From NCBI GenBank assembly GCA_963783255.1, contig CAWAMP010000022.1:566761-630760 (forward strand): 64,000 nucleotides of DNA, given 5' to 3'. Shown here piece after piece: positions 7,704 to 64,000 of this stretch (positions within the stretch are counted from its first letter, which is position 1; every line of letters starts with the position of its first letter). The translations under genes and the position numbers were made by a program. The notes beneath the pieces are model-generated. The model saw only the letters and a list, made by a program, of their open reading frames with translations, was not told where the DNA came from and ran no database searches. Origin of the DNA: an uncultured Acidobacteriota bacterium (lineage in GTDB: Bacteria; Acidobacteriota; Vicinamibacteria; Vicinamibacterales; Fen-181).

Positions 7704-8561
7704 ATGAAGGTACTGGTGATCGGCGGAACGGGCACGGTCGGTTCGACGGTGGTGAGCCAGTTGACGGCCGGCGGGCACGAGCCGCGCGTGATGACGCGAT
7801 TGGCGGAGAAGGCCGCCCGCGTGCCGCCTGGCACGGCGCACGTGGTCGCAGATCTCGAACAGCCGGCTTCCCTTCCGGCGGCGTTCGCGGGCGTCGGCGG
7901 CGTGTTCCTGATCGCCGCGGTCGGCCCGACCGAAACCGAACAGGGCCTCGCCGGAGTCGCAGCCGCAAAGGCCGCGGGCCTCCAGCGCATCGTCTACGTG
8001 TCGGTGGCCATGCCGCCGGGTTCCGAGGTGATCCCGCACTTCGCGTCGAAGATCCCGGTCGAACAAGCCGTCCAGGCGTCGGGAATCCCGTGGACCATCC
8101 TCAGACCGAACAACTTCTTCCAGAACGACCTGTGGCTGCGCGACGCGATCACGGTCCACGGCGTCTACCCCCAGCCGCTGGGCCCGCGCGGCGTCAACCG
8201 CGTGGATGTGCGCGATGTCGCCGAGGCGGCTGCCAACGCCTTCACGCGCGGCGTCGGCGGCATCGTGCCGCTCAACGGCCCGCGGGGCCTGACCGGCGAC
8301 GACACCGCGCGCGTCTACTCCGAGCACCTGAAGCGCCCGGTGCGCTACGGCGGCGACGACCTCGACGCGTGGGAGCGGCAGGCCGCGATCATGTTCCCGC
8401 CACGGATGGTACAGGACCTCCGGATCATGTACGACTACTTCATCAGGAACGGGATGCATGCCAGCGGAACGGACTTCGCCGCTCAGGAACGCCTGCTCGG
8501 CCGGGGCCCGCGGCCTTTCGAGGCGTTTGCTGCAGAACTCACGGACAGTTGGAAGAAGTAG
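7704..8561 (+). CDS. NmrA-family NAD(P)-binding protein
   Basis: It has an MKVLVIGGTGTVGS Rossmann motif at the internal ATG of ORF 7296..8561 and NmrA-like length (285 aa). Confidence 0.8.
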   Translation: MKVLVIGGTGTVGSTVVSQLTAGGHEPRVMTRLAEKAARVPPGTAHVVADLEQPASLPAAFAGVGGVFLIAAVGPTETEQGLAGVAAAKAAGLQRIVYVSVAMPPGSEVIPHFASKIPVEQAVQASGIPWTILRPNNFFQNDLWLRDAITVHGVYPQPLGPRGVNRVDVRDVAEAAANAFTRGVGGIVPLNGPRGLTGDDTARVYSEHLKRPVRYGGDDLDAWERQAAIMFPPRMVQDLRIMYDYFIRNGMHASGTDFAAQERLLGRGPRPFEAFAAELTDSWKK

Positions 8562-8562
8562 G

Positions 8563-8675
8563 GATCTTGCGACGTTGCGATCTTGCGAACTGGTTATCCC
8601 GCGAGCTGGGATCTCACGGAATGGAGGCTGGCCGAAGTCCTTCGCAAGATCTCGACTTCGCACGATCGCAAGGTG
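8563..8675. repeat. 8-nt-period array, locus B, arranged as two inverted arms between convergent genes
   Basis: Arm 1 is GATCTTGC GACGTTGC GATCTTGC GAACTGGT (8563-8594). Arm 2 is AGTCCTTC GCAAGATC TCGACTTC GCACGATC GCAAGGTG (8636-8675). GATCTTGCGA at 8563-8572 is the exact reverse complement of 8642-8651. Confidence 0.85.
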
Positions 8676-8690
8676 CCCGCTGGTGGCACC

Positions 8691-10556
8691 CTACGTCTTC
8701 CCCATCCAGTGCAGAATACCGAGCGACATCCACTCCGAGTAGGTGATCAGCAGCACGCCGATCGCGAGGATGATCAGGAACGGGATCACGTAGCGATACA
8801 GCTTCGGCAGCGACGTGTTGAACCGCGACGACGACAGGAACAGGTTCAACCCGACCGGCGGGAACAGGAACCCCAGTTCCAGGTTCGACAGGAAGATCAC
8901 GCCGAGGTGAATCGGGTTGATGCCGTAGGCCGCCCCGAGCGGCACGACCAGCGGCGCCAGGATGACGATGGCCGCGTAGATCTCCACCACGCTGCCCACG
9001 ACCAGCAGGAAGACGTTCAGCGCGAGCAGGAACATCGCGGGCGACTGGATGTGCGCCTGGACCCACGCGAGAATCTGGACCGGAATCTGCGCGTCGACCA
9101 GATAGTTCGTGAACCCCATCGCGATGCTCAGCAGCATCAGCACGGCGCCCATCAGGCCCGCCGCCTTCAGCAGCACGCCCGGCAGCGTCCTGAACACGTG
9201 CAGGTCGCGGGTGATGAAACACTCGACGGCGACCGCGTATGCGAGCGCCGCCGCCGCCGTCTCCATCATCGTGAGCCAGCCCGAGGCGAACAGCCCCATC
9301 ACCACGAACGGGAGGCCGAGTTCCCACTTGGCCCGCCAGGTCGAAACGGCCAGTTCCTTCCAGGAGAACGCCTGCCGCTCCCGGCTGACGCGCCGGCCGA
9401 TGAAGATGCCGTAACCCGCCGTGAGGACGACGAGCAGCAGCCCCGGCAGCAGTCCGGCGATGTAGAGCTGATCGAGCGGGACGATCTGGTCGCGTGAGCT
9501 GGCGACGACCGAGTAGAGCACGACGGGGAGGCTCGGCGGGAACAGCAGGCCGAGCGAGCCGGAGGCCGTCACCAGCCCCAGCGAGAACCCTTCCGAGTAG
9601 CCGTCCTTGCGCAGCATCGGATACACGAGCCCGCCGAGCGCGATGATGGTCACGCCCGACCCGCCCGTGAACGTCGTGAACAGCGCGCACACGGCCGCCA
9701 CCATGACGGCGAGGCCGCCGGGCATCCACCCGAACAGCGAACGGAAGAACCGCACCAGCCGCTCCGCCGCCGCGCTCTCGGCGAGCACGTAGCCTGCCGC
9801 CGTCAGCAGCGGGATGGCGGGAAGCGTCGGTGAACCGATCAGGTCGTAGACCTTGCGCGTCACCGCCGACACCGGCGTGCCTTCCGAGAAGAACAGGACC
9901 GCGGCGATCCCGCCCATCGCGATGAACACCGGCGCGCCCAGCAGCGCCGCCGCCAGGACCACGAGCGCCAGCGGCCAGAGGTAACCGACCGCATCGGCGG
10001 GCAGCAGCCCGGTCGCGAACGCCGCCGGGATCGCGAGAAACGCGACCGAGCGCCCCCACCACCGGTCGGACGCCTTGTACGCGAACGCCAGTGCCATCAG
10101 CGCGAGCGCGATCGGCATCACGGCTTCCGATGCCCACTGCGGGATGCCGATCGGCAGCATCTTCGGCTCGGACGCTGCGCGATGCATCCGGACGATGTCG
10201 AACGCGCCCTTGCCGAGGACGGCGATGACCGCCGCCGACACCGAGAAGCCGAACAGCCGCGAGAGGCGGCGCGCGAGTCCCTCGCCGAAGAACTCCGCGG
10301 TCGAGAGCGTCAGGTGCTTGCCCTGGATCGCCGCCGCGAGACCGCCGACGAAGGCCAGCCACAAGGTGAGCTGCTTGACGTACTCGTCCTTGCCCGGCAC
10401 ATGGAATCCGCCGAACGGCCTCCCGACCGCGTCGACGAGCAGGAGGATGGTCGTCAGGGCGAGCGTCGCCGTCAGGATGGTCTGCTCGGCTCCCTTGAGC
10501 GCCCGGGCCAACACGCCCGGGCGGCTGCCGGAGGATTCCCGTGTCGTCTCGATCAT
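8691..10556 (-). CDS. TRAP transporter fused small+large permease (DctQ-DctM type)
   Basis: A 621-aa polytopic protein with an N-terminal DctQ-like four-helix part followed by a DctM-like body. It ends LITYSEWMSLGILHWMGKT. The solute-binding gene is immediately upstream. Confidence 0.9.
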   Translation of the reverse strand: MIETTRESSGSRPGVLARALKGAEQTILTATLALTTILLLVDAVGRPFGGFHVPGKDEYVKQLTLWLAFVGGLAAAIQGKHLTLSTAEFFGEGLARRLSRLFGFSVSAAVIAVLGKGAFDIVRMHRAASEPKMLPIGIPQWASEAVMPIALALMALAFAYKASDRWWGRSVAFLAIPAAFATGLLPADAVGYLWPLALVVLAAALLGAPVFIAMGGIAAVLFFSEGTPVSAVTRKVYDLIGSPTLPAIPLLTAAGYVLAESAAAERLVRFFRSLFGWMPGGLAVMVAAVCALFTTFTGGSGVTIIALGGLVYPMLRKDGYSEGFSLGLVTASGSLGLLFPPSLPVVLYSVVASSRDQIVPLDQLYIAGLLPGLLLVVLTAGYGIFIGRRVSRERQAFSWKELAVSTWRAKWELGLPFVVMGLFASGWLTMMETAAAALAYAVAVECFITRDLHVFRTLPGVLLKAAGLMGAVLMLLSIAMGFTNYLVDAQIPVQILAWVQAHIQSPAMFLLALNVFLLVVGSVVEIYAAIVILAPLVVPLGAAYGINPIHLGVIFLSNLELGFLFPPVGLNLFLSSSRFNTSLPKLYRYVIPFLIILAIGVLLITYSEWMSLGILHWMGKT

Positions 10557-42552: not shown

Positions 42553-42596
42553 AGTGCGATGCCCTTCGTAGCAGTGGCCAGAATCGGAAGAAGTTC

Positions 42597-42699
42597 GATC
42601 TTGCGGTCTTGCGATCTTGCGAAGTACGCATGGGCTGCTGGACGCCCCCGACCGCGCGATTGCACGTCGCACGATCGCACAATCGTACTTCGCAAGATG
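42597..42699. repeat. 8-nt-period array, locus C, two inverted arms in the infA leader / 3' region of the RRM gene
   Basis: Arm 1 is GATCTTGC GGTCTTGC GATCTTGC GAAGTACG (42597-42628). Arm 2 is GCACGTC GCACGATC GCACAATC GTACTTC GCAAGATG (42662-42699). ATCTTGCGAAGTACG at 42614-42628 is the exact reverse complement of 42684-42698. Confidence 0.85.
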
Positions 42700-42709
42700 C
42701 GACTACGAA

Positions 42710-43021
42710 CTACCAGCGCGGCTCGCGCCGCCGGTTGCCGCCACCGCCGCCGCCGAAACCGCCCGAGCGCTCTGGGCGCGGCTTCGCCTCGTTGACCGTC
42801 AGGCTGCGGCCGCCGAGATCGCGGCCGTGCATCTGCGCGATGGCGTTCTGCGCGTCCGCCTCGGACGCCATCTCGACGAACGCAAAGCCGCGCGCCCTGC
42901 CCGTCGCCATGTCGCGGACGACGTTCACCGATGCCACCTGTCCCGCCGTGCCGAAGAGGTCCTGCAGGTCCTGCTCGGTCGTGTTGAACGGGATGTTGCC
43001 AACGTAGAGTCTCATGCCCAT
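42710..43021 (-). CDS. RRM-type RNA-binding protein with C-terminal Gly/Arg tail
   Basis: RNP motifs are LYVGNIPF (RNP2) and RGFAFVEM (RNP1). The tail is SGGFGGGGGGNRRR. GAGGAG lies 10 nt before the ATG at 43021. Confidence 0.9.
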   Translation of the reverse strand: MGMRLYVGNIPFNTTEQDLQDLFGTAGQVASVNVVRDMATGRARGFAFVEMASEADAQNAIAQMHGRDLGGRSLTVNEAKPRPERSGGFGGGGGGNRRREPRW

Positions 43022-46260: not shown

Positions 46261-46309
46261 GGGCGGGGCCTCCCACTACAGGATTTCGGTGGGAGAAGGA
46301 CAGGACTTC

Positions 46310-46349
46310 AATCTTGCGATCGTGCGAAGTGGCGAACTGGCGAACTGGC
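46310..46349 (-). repeat. 8-nt-period array, locus D (5 phased octamers)
   Basis: The plus strand reads AATCTTGC GATCGTGC GAAGTGGC GAACTGGC GAACTGGC. This is the same unit vocabulary as locus E. It lies 50 nt upstream of the FHA-GGDEF start. Confidence 0.85.
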
Positions 46350-46354
46350 GGCCG

Positions 46355-46418
46355 GCGACTGGCGGCTTGCGGCGGTGTCACGGGCGACAGCGTGACCCGG
46401 CCGCAAGCCGCCAGTCGC
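46355..46418 (-). terminator. long GC hairpin after the M28 peptidase gene
   Basis: GCGACTGGCGGCTTGCGGC (46355-46373) is the exact reverse complement of 46400-46418, a 19-bp stem. The 26-nt loop contains a further GTCACG/CGTGAC pair. It starts 7 nt after the stop at 46425. There is no U-tract. Confidence 0.75.
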
Positions 46419-46424
46419 GAGCCG

Positions 46425-48410
46425 CTACTTGATCGGCGTGAGCTTGCCCCAGCCCTGCTCCTTCACCGTCTTCATGTCGTTGACCAGCTGCTCGGGCAGC
46501 TTCTCGTTCAGCTTCGGGCGCGTGGCCGCGTTGCCCAGGACCCAGCTGACCGCGTACACCGTCTTGGTCACGGCCTCGAGTTTGTCGTAGTCGATCCTCT
46601 CCGCGCTGTCGGTCACGCGGTGGTAGTCGCTGTGCAGCCCGTCGCAGAAGAAGGCGATCGGAATCCCCATCTTGACGAAGTTGTAGTGGTCGCTGCGGGA
46701 GAAGATCCGCTGGCCGCTCGTGCCCGGACCGAGGTTGTCGTGCGTCGCGTCCGGCACTACCGTGTCGTAGAAATCGCTGAGCTTCATCTTCAGGTAGCGG
46801 CCGTTCACGTCCGCCACGATCTTCCCGAGCTCCGCACTCGCGATGCGGGGACCGACGACGAACACCTCGTTCGGCTCGGCCAGCTTGTAGGATGGCGGGT
46901 CGACGTAGCCGGGTGTCTTGCTGCGGCCGACCATGTCCATGTTCAGATCCGCGACGACCTTGGTGATGTCGACCGGCGGGAACTGGTTGAAGTACTGCGA
47001 GCCCCAGAGCCCCTTCTCTTCGCCTGCCATCCACAGGAAGATGATGGTCCGCTTCGCGCGCCGGCCCTTCGCGGCACCGGTCGCGTACGCTCTCGCCATG
47101 GCCATCATCGCGACACATCCCGACGCATCGTCATCGGCGCCGTTGTAGACGCCGTCGCCGTTCGCGTCGGCAGCGGCGAGGCCGTTGTGATCGAGGTGGG
47201 CGCTGATCACGACGTACTCGTTCTTCAGCACCGGGTCGCTCCCTTCGACCATGGCCATGACGTTGTAGGCGTACTTCTTGTCGGAGGTGACCGCGAGCTT
47301 GAGCGTCACCTTCTTGTCCGCCGCGAGGTCGAACGAGTCGAGCCTGGCGTTGGCCGCGGCGCCGTTGAACACCTGCGCGCCGGTCAGCTTCTCGCCCTGG
47401 AACAGGCCGTTGATGAGCTCGACGCCTGCCATGATCGCCGGCACGGAAGCGGGCCGGTTCGCCTGGAACTTCACGACCTGGTAGGACGGGCCGTTGAGCG
47501 AGGCGCGGGGCGCGGTCGGCGTCGCCATGCCGGAGAGTTGCTGGAACGTGGGAATCGTGATGATGCCGACGGCGCCGTTCCTCGCGGCGTAGGTCTGCGG
47601 CGTCGTAAAGTCGGTGTTCTCGACGCCGAGCGGGTTGGGCGGCCCGCCGCGGCCACCGCCGCCACGCCCGCCGGCGCCCGCGCCCGCCGCGGCCTGGGCT
47701 GCCGCGAGCTCGGCGGGCAGGCCGGCCACCACCATCACCTTCCCCCGAACGTCGATGCCCTCGTACGGATTCGTCTTCGTCTTGTTGATGACGTAGCCGT
47801 TCCCGACGAAGACGAGGTTGGCCGACGAGATCTCGGCCGGCGTCACGCCGCCGCCCCCGCGCCCACCGCCGCCTCCGCCCGCCGTCCAGTCCTTACCGTA
47901 CTCGAACGCGCGAGGTACGGCGGGCGGCACCGGCGCCGGCGCGGCTGCGCGGGCTCCTGGCACGGCCGCCGCGCCCGCCCCGGCGGGTGCACCCGCGCCG
48001 CCTCGCCCGCCCCGTCCACCGGCCGCGGCCAGCGTGATCGACAGCTTCATGTTCGGGGTGTCGTTCTGGCTGCTGATCAGGTCGAACGGCACCAGATAGG
48101 CCTGGAGCGGTCCGTCGGCCGGCGCGACGCTGCGAGCCGGCGTAAGACCCCATTCCTTCATGTGGCTGGCGATATAGAGCGCTGCCGTGTCGTATCCGCG
48201 CGAAGGCAGATTGCGGCCCTCGAGTTGGTCGGAGGAGAGGAAGTACTCGTAGGTCTTCAGTTCGTCCTGGGTGATCGCGTCGGCGTTGCCGAACGCCTTG
48301 CCGGACGCCTTGATGTACGGCGACTTGGCCTGCTGAGCCGCCACGCCTGTCCACATGAGCAGCGCCAGCAGCCCGATGAGAAGTGAGGTGGAACCAGTGA
48401 TTCGACGCAT
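46425..48410 (-). CDS. secreted M28-family aminopeptidase with PA-like insert and Gly/Arg/Ala low-complexity segments
   Basis: It has a signal peptide. M28 metal-ligand blocks are VISAHLDHNG and YNGADDDASG. Length is 661 aa. Confidence 0.85.
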   Translation of the reverse strand: MRRITGSTSLLIGLLALLMWTGVAAQQAKSPYIKASGKAFGNADAITQDELKTYEYFLSSDQLEGRNLPSRGYDTAALYIASHMKEWGLTPARSVAPADGPLQAYLVPFDLISSQNDTPNMKLSITLAAAGGRGGRGGAGAPAGAGAAAVPGARAAAPAPVPPAVPRAFEYGKDWTAGGGGGGRGGGGVTPAEISSANLVFVGNGYVINKTKTNPYEGIDVRGKVMVVAGLPAELAAAQAAAGAGAGGRGGGGRGGPPNPLGVENTDFTTPQTYAARNGAVGIITIPTFQQLSGMATPTAPRASLNGPSYQVVKFQANRPASVPAIMAGVELINGLFQGEKLTGAQVFNGAAANARLDSFDLAADKKVTLKLAVTSDKKYAYNVMAMVEGSDPVLKNEYVVISAHLDHNGLAAADANGDGVYNGADDDASGCVAMMAMARAYATGAAKGRRAKRTIIFLWMAGEEKGLWGSQYFNQFPPVDITKVVADLNMDMVGRSKTPGYVDPPSYKLAEPNEVFVVGPRIASAELGKIVADVNGRYLKMKLSDFYDTVVPDATHDNLGPGTSGQRIFSRSDHYNFVKMGIPIAFFCDGLHSDYHRVTDSAERIDYDKLEAVTKTVYAVSWVLGNAATRPKLNEKLPEQLVNDMKTVKEQGWGKLTPIK

Positions 48411-51574: not shown

Positions 51575-51793
51575 ATGCGAGCCCGACTGTCGGTGGTCAC
51601 GGCGTTCGTCCCAGCACTGGCGCTGGTGGCCGGCCTGCCGTTCGTGAACCGTCTTGAGCCGATGGTGTTCGGCCTGCCCTTTCTCCTGTCCTGGATCCTC
51701 GGCTGGGTGCTGGCGACCCCGCTCTTTCTGGCCGCCGCCTACCTCCTGGCCGATCGGACGTCCGATCATCCGGAAGACGGGTCGCGCGGATGA
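51575..51793 (+). CDS. DUF3311-like small membrane protein partnered with a symporter
   Basis: A 72-aa protein with two TM helices and GAGGTG 5 nt before the ATG. Its stop overlaps the symporter ATG (ATGA at 51790-51793). Confidence 0.55.
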   Translation: MRARLSVVTAFVPALALVAGLPFVNRLEPMVFGLPFLLSWILGWVLATPLFLAAAYLLADRTSDHPEDGSRG

Positions 51794-53223
51794 CGGTCCC
51801 CCTGCTCGTCATTCTGGCGTTCATCCTCGCGTCGGCGGCGGTCGGGATGGTGGGACGCGGCCGGGGCGAGATGAACCTCGAACGGTGGACGGTCGGCGGC
51901 CGCCGTTTCGGCCTCATCCTCGTCTGGCTGCTGATGGCCGGAGAGATCTACACGACGTTCACGTTTCTCGGGGCGAGCGGCTGGGCCTATTCGCGGGGCG
52001 CCCCGGCCTTCTACATCCTCGCCTACGGCACGATCGGCTACATCATCTCGTTCTTCCTGCTCCCGCCGGTCTGGCGCATGGCGAAGCGCCTCGGCCTCCA
52101 CACGCAGCCCGACTTCTTCCTCGCGCGATACGGCAGCCCGGCGCTCGCCGGGATGGTGGCGGTCGTCGGCGTCGTCTCGATCGTGCCCTACCTGCAACTC
52201 CAACTCGCGGGCCTCGGCATGATCGTCGAGACCGCCAGCGGCGGAGCGATCGCCTCGGCTCCGGCCATCGTCCTCGCCTTCGTGCTGACGTGCGTCTTCG
52301 TCTACACGAGCGGCCTGAAGGGAATCGCGTGGGTCGCCATCGTCAAGGACGTTTCGATGGTGGTCGCCATCGTGGTCATCGGCGTCGGCCTGCCCGCGAT
52401 GTACTTCGGCAGCCTGCGCGGAATGCTGGCCGAGCTCGTCCGGCAACATCCCGCCCACCTGACGTTTCCGGGCGCGACGACGACGATGGACGTGGGGTGG
52501 GTGGCCAGCACCATCCTGCTGACCGGCATGGGCTTCTACTGCTGGCCGCACGGGTTTGCGGCGACATTCTCGGCGAAGGACGAGCGCACGATCCGGCGCA
52601 ACGCCGTGATCATGCCGCTCTACCAGATCCCGATCCTGCTCGTCTTCTTCGTCGGATTCACGGCCCTGCTCGTCCTGCCCGGCCTCGAGCAGCCGGACAA
52701 GGCACTGCTGACGCTGGTCACCCGCAGCTACCCGGGCTGGTTCGCCGGGTTCGTGGGCGGCGCCGGGGCGGTCACGGCGATGGTCCCCGCGTCGATGCTG
52801 CTGCTGGTCTCGTCGACGCTCGTGGCCAAGAACATCTACCGGCCGCTGCGACGGTGCGAGGTGGGCGACGCGGAACTGATGCGCGCCTCGCGCGGGTTCA
52901 TGCTGGTCATCGCGGTCGTCGCGCTGGTGCTGGCGCTCTGGTCACCCAACGAGCTGGTGAAGCTGCTGATCTTCGGCTACGACGGGATTGCGCAGTTCTT
53001 CCCCGGCATCGCCCTGGGTGTGTTCACCCGCCGAGTCAGTGCGCGCCCGGTCATCCTGGGCCTCGTCGCCGGAGAAGCCGTCGTCATCTCGCTGATCTGG
53101 ACCGGCCACGACCCGTTCCTGGGCATGAACGCCGGGTTCGTGGGACTCGCCGTCAACGGACTGGTCGCACTGGTGTCGATGGCGATCGGTGGCTCGCCCG
53201 CGGCACTCGAGGGCGAGGCGTGA
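51790..53223 (+). CDS. sodium:solute symporter (SSS) family transporter
   Basis: A 477-aa polytopic protein (GRRFGLILVWLLMAGEIYTTFTFLGASGWAY). It is translationally coupled to the upstream small membrane protein. Confidence 0.9.
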   Translation: MTVPLLVILAFILASAAVGMVGRGRGEMNLERWTVGGRRFGLILVWLLMAGEIYTTFTFLGASGWAYSRGAPAFYILAYGTIGYIISFFLLPPVWRMAKRLGLHTQPDFFLARYGSPALAGMVAVVGVVSIVPYLQLQLAGLGMIVETASGGAIASAPAIVLAFVLTCVFVYTSGLKGIAWVAIVKDVSMVVAIVVIGVGLPAMYFGSLRGMLAELVRQHPAHLTFPGATTTMDVGWVASTILLTGMGFYCWPHGFAATFSAKDERTIRRNAVIMPLYQIPILLVFFVGFTALLVLPGLEQPDKALLTLVTRSYPGWFAGFVGGAGAVTAMVPASMLLLVSSTLVAKNIYRPLRRCEVGDAELMRASRGFMLVIAVVALVLALWSPNELVKLLIFGYDGIAQFFPGIALGVFTRRVSARPVILGLVAGEAVVISLIWTGHDPFLGMNAGFVGLAVNGLVALVSMAIGGSPAALEGEA

Positions 53224-53305
53224 GTCCGCAGTCATCCGTTCTGAGTTCGGAGTTCGGAGTTCTGAGTTCTGAGTTGTGAGTGGTGAGTGGTGAGGCGAGA
53301 GGAAC
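53222..53305 (+). repeat. 7-nt-period array, locus F (12 phased heptamers filling the whole spacer from stop to start codon)
   Basis: Units read GAGTCCG CAGTCAT CCGTTCT GAGTTCG GAGTTCG GAGTTCT GAGTTCT GAGTTGT GAGTGGT GAGTGGT GAGGCGA GAGGAAC, then AC-ATG (53308). Confidence 0.9.
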
Positions 53306-53307
53306 AC

Positions 53308-54471
53308 ATGGACAGGGCACTGGCGGCAGAAGTCGAGTCGATGGCCGGCACGCTGGTGGCGTGGCGGCGCGACTTCCACCGGCACCCGGAACTCGGGTTC
53401 GAGGAGCACCGGACGTCCGGCGTGGTGCGCGCGTTCCTCGAGGCGACGGGCATCGAAGTCCGCTCGTGCGGCAGGACGGGGCTCCGGGGCTTCCTCCGAG
53501 GCGGAAGGGCGGGCCGGACCGTGGCGCTTCGCGCCGACATGGACGCGCTGCCGGTCGCCGAGATCGCCGACCACGACTACCAGTCCGAGCATCAGGGCGT
53601 CATGCACGCGTGCGGGCACGACGGCCACATGGCCATCCTGATGGGCGCCGCCAGGATCCTGGCCGCCCGGCGCGACACGCTCGCCGGAAACGTCGTGTTC
53701 CTGTTCCAGCCGTCCGAGGAGAGATCGCCGGGCGGCGCGCCGCTCATGATCGAGGAAGGCGCCCTCGAGGGAGTGGACAGCATCTTCGGCCTTCACCTGT
53801 GGCAGCCACTGCCTTCGGGCGTCGTGGGCCTGCGCGCGGGCGCCATGATGGCGCAGGCCGACGAGTTCGAGGTGGTCGTCCACGGTCGCGGCGGCCACGC
53901 GTCGCAGCCGCAGATGACGGTCGATCCCGTCGTGGTCGCCTCGCACCTCGTCGTCGCGGCGCAGACCATCGTCAGCCGGTTCGCGGACCCGGTGAAAGCC
54001 GCCGTCGTGTCGTTCACCACGATCCACGGCGGTCGGATTCACAACATCATCCCCGACTCGGTGACGATGGCCGGGACCGTGCGGACGCTCGACCTGGCGA
54101 CTCAGCGGGCCGTGAAGCAGCGGCTCGGCGAGGTGTGCGAGGCGACGTGCCGGTTGTTCGGCGCCACCGCCGAATTCACGTACGCGGACGGCTATCCGCC
54201 GCTGCTGAACGACGAGTCGTCGGTGGACCTCGTGTCCCGCGCGGCCGCCCGCGAACTGGGCGCCGACCGCGTCCGAACCATCGCGCCGGTGATGGGCGGC
54301 GAGGATTTCGCGTACTTTCTGCAGCGCGTCCCCGGAGCGTTCGCGATGCTGGGCACCGGCGACAACCGGCCGTACCCGCACCACAACGCGCGGTTCGACA
54401 TCGACGAGAGCGTCCTGCCGATCGGTGTGCGGCTGATGACCGCCGTCGCGCTGGAGATGATGCAGGGGTAG
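53308..54471 (+). CDS. M20D-family amidohydrolase (N-acyl-amino-acid amidohydrolase / hippuricase type)
   Basis: It contains WRRDFHRHPELGFEE, MHACGHDGH, FQPSEE and the GGEDFAYF blocks of M20D. Confidence 0.9.
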   Translation: MDRALAAEVESMAGTLVAWRRDFHRHPELGFEEHRTSGVVRAFLEATGIEVRSCGRTGLRGFLRGGRAGRTVALRADMDALPVAEIADHDYQSEHQGVMHACGHDGHMAILMGAARILAARRDTLAGNVVFLFQPSEERSPGGAPLMIEEGALEGVDSIFGLHLWQPLPSGVVGLRAGAMMAQADEFEVVVHGRGGHASQPQMTVDPVVVASHLVVAAQTIVSRFADPVKAAVVSFTTIHGGRIHNIIPDSVTMAGTVRTLDLATQRAVKQRLGEVCEATCRLFGATAEFTYADGYPPLLNDESSVDLVSRAAARELGADRVRTIAPVMGGEDFAYFLQRVPGAFAMLGTGDNRPYPHHNARFDIDESVLPIGVRLMTAVALEMMQG

Positions 54472-54596
54472 ACCGCAGCCGCTTGCGACTGGCGGCCCTT
54501 CGACACGCTCAACGTTCTCCCGACCCAAGTCGAGGGACGATTGGCGGCGGCGCGAGTTGATTGAACGCACCCGTTCGGCTATACGATAATCCCCCC

Positions 54597-58133: not shown

Positions 58134-58157
58134 GAACGGGCTCCTTCTCACAAGGAT

Positions 58158-58241
58158 GGCTCCTGGCTCTTGGCTCTCGGCTCCCGGCTCTCGGCAGAGA
58201 GCCAGACGCGGCCTGAGGCCGAAGGTCGAGAGCCCAGAGCC
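58158..58241. repeat. 7-nt-period array, locus H (12 phased heptamers with inverted arms)
   Basis: Units read GGCTCCT GGCTCTT GGCTCTC GGCTCCC GGCTCTC GGCAGAG AGCCAGA CGCGGCC TGAGGCC GAAGGTC GAGAGCC CAGAGCC. There is a perfect hairpin, GGCTCTC-GGCA-GAGAGCC (58186-58203). Confidence 0.85.
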
Positions 58242-62745: not shown

Positions 62746-62777
62746 ATGATACCATGATTTCATGATATCATCATGAT
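62746..62777 (-). promoter_or_regulatory. AT-rich putative operator/promoter of the toxin-antitoxin pair
   Basis: This is the only AT-rich patch in the window. ATGAT occurs four times, starting at 62746, 62754, 62762 and 62773. The palindrome ATGATATCAT spans 62762-62771. It lies 7 nt upstream of the antitoxin ATG. Confidence 0.4.
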
Positions 62778-63160: not shown

Positions 63161-63206
63161 ATGCCCGGATCAACGTGCAAGGACGGGGCCGGGGGGAGAA
63201 TCCAGC

Positions 63207-63286
63207 GATCTTGCGATCTTGCGATCTTGCGATCTTGCGATCTGGCGAACTGGCGAACTGGCGAACTGGCAATCGTGCGAAGTTGC
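63207..63286 (-). repeat. 8-nt-period array, locus E (10 phased octamers, best copy)
   Basis: The plus strand reads GATCTTGC x4, GATCTGGC, GAACTGGC x3, AATCGTGC, GAAGTTGC with no phase slip. It lies 47 nt upstream of the yraN start and 29 nt downstream of the ribF stop. Confidence 0.95.
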
Positions 63287-63314
63287 GAACCGGGAGGGAG
63301 CGGTCCGTCGACGG

Positions 63315-64000
63315 CTATCGGGGGCTCGTCGACAACGCGGTGCGGGCGGAGTGGCAGTCGGCGGCGATCTGCGCCTTCAGCGCCTCGACACCGTCGAACG
63401 TTCTTTCGTCGCGGATGCGGTGGACGAACGACACGCGGATCGGCGCACCGTAGAGATCGCGGTCCATGTCGAGGATGTGGGTTTCGACGACGGTCGCCGA
63501 CGGCAGGTGGAACGTCGGACGGATTCCGATGTTCGTGACCGACGGGTACTCGACGCCATCGAGCGTCGCGAGCGTCGCGTAGACGCCGTTGGGCGGCAGC
63601 AGTTCGTTCGGCGTGTCCAGGTTGGCCGTTGGAAACCCGAGCGTCCGTCCTCTCTGGAGCCCGTGGACCACGACGCCGTCCATACTGTAGCGGCGTCCCA
63701 ACAGCGTGGCCGCCTCCTCAACCCGCCCCTCCGCGATCAGCTGCCTCGCACGCGAACTCGACACGACGAACTCCTTGTACCGCACCGGCTCGATGGCCTC
63801 CGCGCCGAATCCGTACCGCGACCCGAGCTGTCGCAACGTCGAGAGGGTTCCGGCCCGGTCGTGCCCGAACACGAAACCCGCGCCAACCCAGACCTCCGCG
63901 ACGCCCAGCCACCCGGCCAGCACCAGCCGCACGAACGTCTCCGGGTCCCATGCCGCCACGTCGCGCGTGAACGTGACAATCGCGACGCCCTGCACGCCGA
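63315..64000 (-). CDS. ribF: bifunctional riboflavin kinase / FMN adenylyltransferase, 3' part (5' end outside window)
   Basis: The riboflavin-kinase blocks are GVVVHGLQRGRTLGFPTANL and VETHILDMDRDLYG. The ORF is open to the window edge. Confidence 0.85.
   Translation of the reverse strand, partial: GVQGVAIVTFTRDVAAWDPETFVRLVLAGWLGVAEVWVGAGFVFGHDRAGTLSTLRQLGSRYGFGAEAIEPVRYKEFVVSSSRARQLIAEGRVEEAATLLGRRYSMDGVVVHGLQRGRTLGFPTANLDTPNELLPPNGVYATLATLDGVEYPSVTNIGIRPTFHLPSATVVETHILDMDRDLYGAPIRVSFVHRIRDERTFDGVEALKAQIAADCHSARTALSTSPR

Follow-up and report, generated by a model that had tools for sequence, protein, structure and literature searches.

The heptamer array between the symporter and M20 genes

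The stretch of DNA analysed here, referred to as the window, is a 64 kb piece of contig CAWAMP010000022.1 from an uncultured Acidobacteriota bacterium. It has a G+C content of 68% and features a tandem array of 7-nt units in the spacer between two genes on the forward strand. The upstream gene (51790-53223) encodes a member of the sodium:solute symporter family (SSF), which was identified from its open reading frame (ORF) and a Pfam match (PF00474, E=4e-27). The downstream gene (53308-54471) encodes an M20 family amidohydrolase with M20 and M20_dimer domains (Pfam PF01546, PF07687). The protein collection contains a 387-aa protein that is 100% identical to the M20 product and begins at the ATG at 53308, and the named relatives of the M20 protein come from Thermoanaerobaculaceae/Acidobacteriota metagenome-assembled genomes (MAGs). 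The M20 product begins with the residues MDRAL, which are kept in relatives. A start at the GTG at 53287 was considered and rejected, since this codon lies inside the array just past an in-frame TGA and the relatives keep MDRAL at the ATG; the analysis therefore backs ATG 53308 over the in-array GTG as the M20 start. In the relatives the genes form a DUF3311-SSF-M20 string with spacers down to 16 nt, and neither a promoter-like nor a terminator-like site was found in 52900-53500 of the window, thus the DUF3311-symporter-M20 string is probably co-transcribed.

The array occupies positions 53222-53305 as twelve 7-nt phases in one frame, running from the symporter TGA (53221-53223), which overlaps the first unit, to 2 nt short of the M20 ATG. 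An earlier description made from the letters of the window (the sequence-only reading) had given the sequence, the stop and start codons, and the phases exactly as they were found here. It had also presented the spacer as a 12-unit array with GAG at the head of every unit. The single 7-nt phase and nine clean units (53243-53305) bear this out, however, GAG heads 10 of the 12 units and the three units at the 5' end are degenerate (GAGTCCG, CAGTCAT, and CCGTTCT; 53222-53242), the second and third of these lacking the GAG. The core of the array (53243-53291) consists of seven well-kept units, namely GAGTTCG twice, GAGTTCT twice, GAGTTGT once, and GAGTGGT twice. The proximal units, GAGGCGA and GAGGAAC, plus a final AC (53292-53307) hold the Shine-Dalgarno (SD) sequence GAGAGGA, which is recognised as part of a conserved block and by its predicted pairing with the anti-SD. 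The sequence-only reading had placed the only SD-like GAGG of the spacer in these last two units. GAGG is indeed confined to them, but GGAG is present at two unit junctions (TCGGAGTT) with moderate predicted anti-SD affinity. An in-phase GAGGCGT lies within the final symporter codons (53215-53221) and may be an absorbed 13th unit; symporter 3' ends vary among relatives.

Tandem Repeats Finder (TRF) detected a period-7 repeat at 53238-53281 with 6.3 copies, 91% matches, and a score of 67, and made a second period-7 call at 53270-53294 with a score of 43. The first call begins at 53238 and omits the first two edge units; the core is covered by both calls and by a phased GAG-N4 run of nine units that starts at 53243. 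The null model consisted of 200 dinucleotide-preserving shuffles of the whole 64 kb window, with phased GAG-N4 runs scored on either strand. The top period-7/8 score among the shuffles was 45, compared with the observed 67, and the longest GAG-N4 run in any of them was 5, compared with the observed 9. The heptamer array is real and lies far above chance. The degenerate units 1-3 agree with GAGTTCT at 14 of 21 positions (chance P about 4e-5), so these edge units are probably old units. With head-to-tail copies that are longer than chance by both TRF and the shuffles, and with its non-coding position between the symporter stop and the M20 start, the array has the characteristics of a long simple-sequence repeat (LSSR), a class defined by unbroken runs of a 5-11 nt unit.

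A second feature of the array is the recurrence of stop codons. Seven TGA triplets lie between 53221 and 53293 at junctions where the T ending one unit meets the GA(G) of the next, and the last in-frame TGA is 24 nt upstream of the M20 ATG. All three frames contain a TGA because these junctions recur at period 7, and TGA was found in frames 0, 1, and 2 of every orthologous array examined.

RNA folding revealed little structure in the spacer. Comparison with shuffled sequence gave z = 0.17 for the window and z = 0.14 for the orthologous array at locus L089 of a relative, meaning that the array is no more structured than shuffled sequence. The SD and the start codon are unpaired in both the minimum free energy (MFE) and the centroid folds, and the array is single-stranded or weakly paired. 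No inverted partner array was found near the window array. The only complementarity seen was with GGAACTC, 109-130 nt off within the M20 coding sequence, and it was judged coincidental. A reading of the array as an RNA structure was rejected on the basis of the two z values and the lack of an adjacent inverted partner array. A search of Rfam gave no match, either at the gathering thresholds for the whole window or at E<=1 for 53100-53420.

Anti-SD pairing was computed against a generic bacterial anti-SD tail, which may not be that of the host. The strongest predicted pairing was -9.9 kcal/mol at -12, in the conserved GAGAGGA SD (about -9 to -16). Moderate affinity of -6 to -8 kcal/mol was predicted at the GGAG junctions and the GGUGAG units of the window, and none was predicted for the GAGUUCU units of L086 or the GAGAAUU units of L081, L088, and L089. 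The predicted SD-likeness of the array units is not conserved.

Orthologous spacers in relatives

The comparison is based on the window plus 21 kb loci of relatives; a protein-seeded scan of genome contigs supplied two close relatives among the 80 loci listed. Most comparisons are between species, with M20 nucleotide identities of 84-90%. The L085 and L086 loci (91-92% aa similarity to the window) feature a spacer that reads CAGTTGT GAGTTCT GAGTCTT GAGTTCT GAGTTCT, followed by two drifted units and then GAGGAAC AA ATG, and their arrays are classed as GAGTTCT-type x4. L081 (90% aa) features 5.3 copies of GAGAATT and the symporter TGA falls within the array. L088 (85% aa) features a mixture of GGGAATT and GAGAATT units, 5.1 copies in all, and the symporter ORF runs through them. 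The spacer of L089 (84% aa) is 79 nt long and consists of GAGAATT five times and GGGAATT three times, then GGGAACT GAAGACT GAGAAGC. In L091 and L092 (86% aa) there are 2-3 units of GAGAATT, with a DDE transposase gene just upstream and the symporter replaced; this DDE_Tnp_1 gene (L091 90-1283, L092 88-1281) lies directly 5' of the remnant array. A further relative, P0004 (91% aa), is known from its spacer length of 58 nt alone.

Where the array is present, the number of recognisable units ranges from about 2-3 to 12 and the gene pair is retained. TRF copy counts among the array-bearing loci are 5.0-9.3 with GAGTTCT, GAGAATT, or GGGAATT as the unit, and the stop-to-start distance ranges from 16 to 84 nt. 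Counted by unit, the relatives have GAGTTCT x4, GAGAATT x2-5, and GGGAATT x3-4. The sequence-only reading had proposed a comparison of unit number among relatives and had held that a unit number varying freely, with no effect on downstream expression, would speak against a function; the first half of this is what the comparison returned. The same locus differs in both length and sequence across related genomes, as polymorphic LSSRs do. It also combines a shared intergenic position in related species with variable length and sequence, which is the behaviour described for the heptamer repeats of Xanthomonas and Nostoc. The array is absent from the orthologous spacers of L001, L002, L082-L084, and L090, where the spacers are 16-29 nt long and contain an ordinary SD. 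A DNA-pattern scan of metagenomes returned three loci, none of which (0/3) has the array.

A neighbour-joining tree of the M20 protein places all array bearers in one clade, with the array-less L090 nested within it. The GAGAATT unit occurs in both sub-clades and GAGTTCT is restricted to the branch of the window and L085-87. The array is lineage-specific, being found in one Thermoanaerobaculia-like Acidobacteriota clade, and its nearest relatives are without it. Within the clade, copy number and unit sequence have changed, and the period, the position, and the downstream SD/start block have been kept. The block GCGAGAGGA[A/T]CA that precedes the ATG is conserved in all array-bearing relatives, so that the last 13-16 nt are constant and the rest of the spacer changes. 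Because this proximal block is common to all array bearers, the array is described as having been inserted after the stop codon and ahead of the SD.

The comparison also bears on the unit itself. Counted in phase from the ATG, the units of the older arrays are GAATTGA/GAATTGG, with GAG displaced by 2 nt. Additionally, some units of the relatives are headed by GGG instead of GAG (GGGAATT in L088 and L089). As far as the orthologous sequences tell, the GAG head is conserved neither in phase nor in sequence. The sequence-only reading had pointed out that the array shares an AGTTC core with an octamer family of the window. The literal overlap with the octamer GCGAACTG exists, but kinship does not follow from it, since AGTTC is derived and the older form of the array is GAGAATT. 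AGTTC is recent at the M20 spacer because the deeper branches of the clade carry GAGAATT/GGGAATT.

Identical units of the window array stand as adjacent pairs and both edges of the array are degenerate. These features, together with orthologous arrays of other lengths and units, agree with the history that the sequence-only reading had proposed, namely tandem duplication with point changes afterwards. Among close relatives two pairs could be compared, L085/L086 at 98.3% M20 nucleotide identity and L091/L092 at 100%; the unit counts are equal within each, and for this reason the array is not demonstrably hypermutable.

Some observations on single relatives accompany these results. The symporter ORF ends inside or runs through the array at L088 9950-9985, L081 9951-9987, and L086 525-560, and the repeat-encoded last residues differ. 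Of three contigs assembled from short-read metagenomes, two terminate at the array or <=31 nt away from it (L085 position 1, L087 position 1); the repeat may have broken the assembly there, or the population may be heterogeneous in array length. At L089 (9913-9977) the GAGAATT array yields a sigma-70-like TTGAGA-N17-GAGAAT with a weak 9/12 match that has no equivalent in the window. The GGGAATT part of the same array could form a G-quadruplex, having four G3 tracts separated by loops of 4 nt; the window array likewise lacks this property.

Other short-period arrays of the clade

Arrays of period 7/8 with at least 3.5 copies were counted in the clade and elsewhere. They are enriched in the clade DNA examined, where 143 kb gave 16; 63 kb of outgroup relatives gave none, and other bacteria gave 12 in 1.28 Mb (about 1 per 100 kb), ten of which come from two genomes. 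All seven 7/8-nt array loci of the window are intergenic (7/7). A census of spacer types, in which the cases are few, placed arrays in five co-directional spacers, one convergent spacer, and zero divergent spacers. GAG-N4 runs occur at two loci only in the window and the units of the two differ.

The second of these runs belongs to a heptamer array at 58157-58195, whose sense strand is the minus strand, in the spacer between a SnoaL gene and an S46 peptidase gene; a counterpart is present at L081 14146-14190. Its units GAGAGCC, AAGAGCC, and AGGAGCC are copies of the S46 SD heptamer AGGAGCC, and inverted GGCTCTC units located upstream pair with the array (z = -2.1). L088 and L089 are without the S46-spacer array, and L088 features at this place only TAG-AGGAGCC-CATTC-ATG. 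The S46 peptidase gene itself is called as short fragments at L081 11967-14140 and L089 12633-14800, compared with 721 aa in the window and in L088, and these fragments are probably frameshift errors of the MAG assemblies.

Arrays of the same unit family occur on the other side of the M20 gene. GGCTCTC/GGCTCAC arrays with up to 10.6 copies lie directly after the M20 stop at L091 2588-2661, L092 2586-2659, L088 11172-11200, and L089 11172-11202; an array of this type is absent from the corresponding part of the window (54472-54560). They share their unit family with the S46 array in the opposite orientation relative to transcription, and the array at L091 2588-2661 is antisense to both of its flanking genes.

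The window also features octamer arrays of GCGATCTT/GCGAACTG and variants with up to 11.8 copies, which are located at 37-126, 8566-8588, 42596-42685, 46324-46366, and 63205-63288, and a further one is found at L081 2638-2740. Local slippage alone is insufficient for this family because the GCGATCTT/GCGAACTG unit recurs at unrelated loci. The array at 8566-8588 sits between the convergent 3' ends of NmrA-like and DctQM genes. Since convergent and antisense examples exist, such arrays are tied neither to the region 5' of genes nor to a single strand. Octamer and heptamer arrays with an inverted partner are predicted to fold into long imperfect hairpins at 8555-8695 (z = -3.7), 42565-42710 on the minus strand (z = -3.9), and 46285-46425 on the minus strand (z = -5.4), and the pure direct arrays at 63170-63315 and 20-145 are unstructured. 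Inverted octamer arrays make up the spacer of about 157 nt (42553-42709) between a gene for an RRM protein and infA, which encodes IF-1; in L088 the two genes abut (about 2558).

Origin of the M20-spacer array and its alternatives

Among long simple-sequence repeats, heptamers are the class that many bacteria carry in excess, and polymerase slippage has been given as the cause, as the work of Mrazek et al. 2007 is summarised in PMC4679880 and PMC4692102. The window array resembles the LSSRs of these summaries in its head-to-tail 7-nt copies beyond chance, its non-coding position, its sporadic, lineage-specific abundance, and the slippage attribution. It differs from them in its host, an uncultured Acidobacteriota clade that is not among the lineages named in the summaries, with the excess sampled in about 143 kb. 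The closest likeness in behaviour is to the GGGAATC repeats of Xanthomonas and the GGGGA(C/T)T repeats of Nostoc, which related species carry between the same gene pairs, and which are highly variable in length and sequence and have no established function (Rehm et al. 2015, PMC4692102). Both are intergenic and near ORF ends, inverted arrangements occur, and L088 and L089 even carry GGGAATT. Unlike these repeats, the window array is without G-tracts and is incapable of forming a quadruplex, and its unit is found at one locus rather than at about 180 loci.

TAACTGA direct repeats have been described from marine Beggiatoaceae, some Cyanobacteria, and some Bacteroidetes; those of Beggiatoaceae occur at about 170 loci, and the repeats provide stops in all frames (MacGregor 2015, PMC4679880). 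As in the TAACTGA repeats, the units of the window array are sense-oriented a few nucleotides before a start (2 nt from ATG 53308), no RNA structure is predicted, and the stops in all frames limit overlap by the upstream ORF. The units, however, are GAGTTCG/GAGTTCT/GAGTGGT, they number up to 12 compared with 2-6, and they are not shared by many loci. The window array also keeps a canonical SD; TAACTGA repeats, beside which a canonical SD is rare, overlie the ribosome-binding site or take its place. Two further sets of tandem heptamers, whose role is debated, come from non-coding DNA close to promoters or start codons: the short tandemly repeated repetitive (STRR) heptamers of the cyanobacterium Calothrix PCC 7601, as cited in PMC4692102, and the contiguous heptamer repeats near start codons in Nostoc (bioRxiv 10.1101/2022.06.06.494920). 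Both differ from the window array in phylum and in units, and STRRs are, in the account cited, genome-wide families of few fixed units.

The window array is, on balance, probably a heptameric LSSR that was made and remodelled by slippage and is tolerated upstream of an intact SD. Several traits together argue for a slippage-driven repeat: one origin, a position and period that have been kept, units that have changed in sequence and in number, edges that have degenerated, and an SD block left untouched. The single origin was probably the duplication of an SD-proximal GAGAGGA-like heptamer, and later expansion, contraction, and homogenisation would have proceeded through replication slippage and point mutation. 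Such a history would account for units that drift step by step, for identical units standing in pairs, and for the degenerate state of the edges. The purine head of the units would most simply have been inherited from the purine-rich SD region that seeded the array, a suggestion that the SD copies in the S46 array support. The array may persist as a nearly harmless element, being upstream of an intact SD, free of folding, and provided with TGA in every frame; the T/GAG junctions at period 7 supply these stops, and the end of the symporter ORF is therefore always found within the array or close to it. Its likely effect would be passive, as the stop-to-start distance is stretched from about 16-29 nt to 84 nt. 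M20 translation would then rely on its own SD and not on termination-reinitiation coupling, and a unit-specific function would not be needed. A neutral array would simply be one of the ordinary by-products that slippage leaves.

Several points weigh against an origin and upkeep by slippage alone. The array has been kept at one spacer across lineages that are ~15% apart in M20 nucleotides, which is long for a purely neutral repeat. Both GAG-N4 runs of the window are sense-oriented and lie just 5' of the starts of peptide-degrading enzymes, which could reflect function. The close pair L085/L086 (98.3% M20) has an equal unit count, which argues that slippage is not very fast. In addition, the clade DNA examined is limited to about 143 kb.

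The sequence-only reading had raised a role as a ribosome standby or spacing element. A putative platform of this kind, standby or translation-enhancing, would hold the 30S subunit by the M20 SD through an unstructured purine-headed array or would set the spacing after the stop. The array is indeed unstructured and adjoins the SD, the GGAG junctions and GGUGAG units of the window have moderate predicted affinity for the anti-SD, the S46 array is built of the SD heptamer of its own gene, and a translational role has also been proposed for the TAACTGA repeats (PMC4679880). A standby site serves a ribosome-binding site that is structurally sequestered, but the predicted folds leave both the SD and the ATG unpaired, which removes the need for one. 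The GAGUUCU and GAGAAUU units of the relatives are without anti-SD affinity, SD-likeness thus being unconserved; the outgroups do without the array, the unit number varies wherever it is present, and arrays of the same class lie between convergent genes and also antisense to genes. The proposed role did not survive these comparisons well and is regarded as improbable. Slippage could instead act as a tuning knob or contingency locus, in which altered stop-to-start distance or an altered symporter C-terminus would adjust the M20:symporter ratio heritably and reversibly. This putative role is unlikely. The 16 to 84 nt range of stop-to-start distances among array bearers, the symporter C-termini reshaped by the array, and the two of three short-read contigs that end at or near it, which might reflect population heterogeneity, are consistent with it, and 5'-UTR repeats that tune expression have a precedent in the AGAT repeat upstream of UspA2, as cited in PMC4679880. 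The array shares with that phase-variable locus of Moraxella catarrhalis (uspA2) the position between upstream signals and the start and a copy number that varies between genomes. Compared with the locus as cited there, however, the array shows no length difference within the near-identical pairs L085/L086 (98.3% nt) and L091/L092 (100%), the genes are ordinary metabolic genes and not surface genes, and the unit is 7 nt compared with 1-5 nt. On/off switches are placed within an ORF or between promoter elements and the array is in neither position, and phase variation was judged unlikely for the comparable Xanthomonas repeats (PMC4692102).

A repeat-binding protein is likewise improbable as the explanation. 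In this putative reading the array would be an operator read as RNA (by a HutP/TRAP-like protein, CsrA, S1, Csp, or RRM protein) or as DNA (by a protein of the ribbon-helix-helix type that binds cooperatively) and would co-regulate the genes preceded by arrays. Its 9-10 GAG triplets at an exact 7-nt period match the XAG-N4 spacing read by HutP (PMC2425495), a second GAG-N4 run stands upstream of the S46 peptidase gene, some units of the clade turn up again at loci unrelated to one another (two spacers have GGCTCTC and at least five loci have the octamer GCGATCTT/GCGAACTG), and an RRM protein gene is present in the window. The spacing is, however, the sole likeness to HutP. The triplet is not conserved in orthologues, where GGGAATT units occur and GAG stands 2 nt out of phase, the units differ among loci, one GGCTCTC array is antisense to its neighbours, and no candidate binder or known binder gene was identified, the DNA available being the 64 kb window and the 21 kb loci of relatives. 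Membership in the HutP/TRAP type was rejected, since the A/G of the triplets is unconserved, the two-site architecture of 3+3 motifs with a 12-17 nt linker and a terminator stem is absent, and the fold gives z = 0.17. A DNA-level element, in which the array would form an internal promoter or a G-quadruplex controlling M20 transcription, is putative and very improbable. GAGAATT arrays of at least five units generate TTGAGA-N17-GAGAAT, a 9/12 match in L089, and the four GGG tracts with 4-nt loops in L089 resemble the quadruplex-forming GGGAATC repeats of Xanthomonas. The window array has no promoter-like site and zero GGG tracts in 53222-53305, where a quadruplex takes at least four G-tracts, so these properties are not conserved across the orthologous arrays. 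To judge from the sequences compared, none of the functional alternatives can point to a property that the orthologous arrays all keep. A broader proposal would treat the 7-8 nt arrays of the clade (the M20 array, the SD copies of the S46 spacer, and the hairpin-forming octamers) as a lineage-specific layer of post-transcriptional control. SD-seeded arrays would serve as decoys or standby sites open to tuning, or would be targeted by a repeat-binding protein, for instance the RRM protein of the window; they would set relative translation within operons, and unit turnover would provide evolutionary tuning. This putative layer is a long shot.

The array extends the heptameric intergenic repeat class, previously described from Xanthomonas, cyanobacteria, Beggiatoaceae, and Burkholderia, to uncultured Acidobacteriota. 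A single operon junction also offers, across these genomes, a natural series of alleles with no units, about 2-5 units, and 9-12 units, which is usable for tests of translational coupling. Caution is needed with such loci, as an array can reshape the 3' end of the gene that precedes it and may cause short-read assemblies to break. Clusters of heptamer arrays were also seen near M20 homologues in unrelated MAGs, a deltaproteobacterium and a Caldilineaceae, at L042 11188-11351 and 17963-19601 and at L080 9549-9758 and 11532-11860, with the units GGAATGC/GGAATTC and an inverted partner, CAGTGGT, and AGGAGAG. The heptamer-array phenomenon extends to these further phyla. A repeat of another kind, short, AT-rich, and of period 8/11 (ATGATATC / ATGTCATGATA), lies in GC-rich surroundings beside the 3' end of a UPF0102 gene in the window (62746-62771) and at L081 20722-20751.

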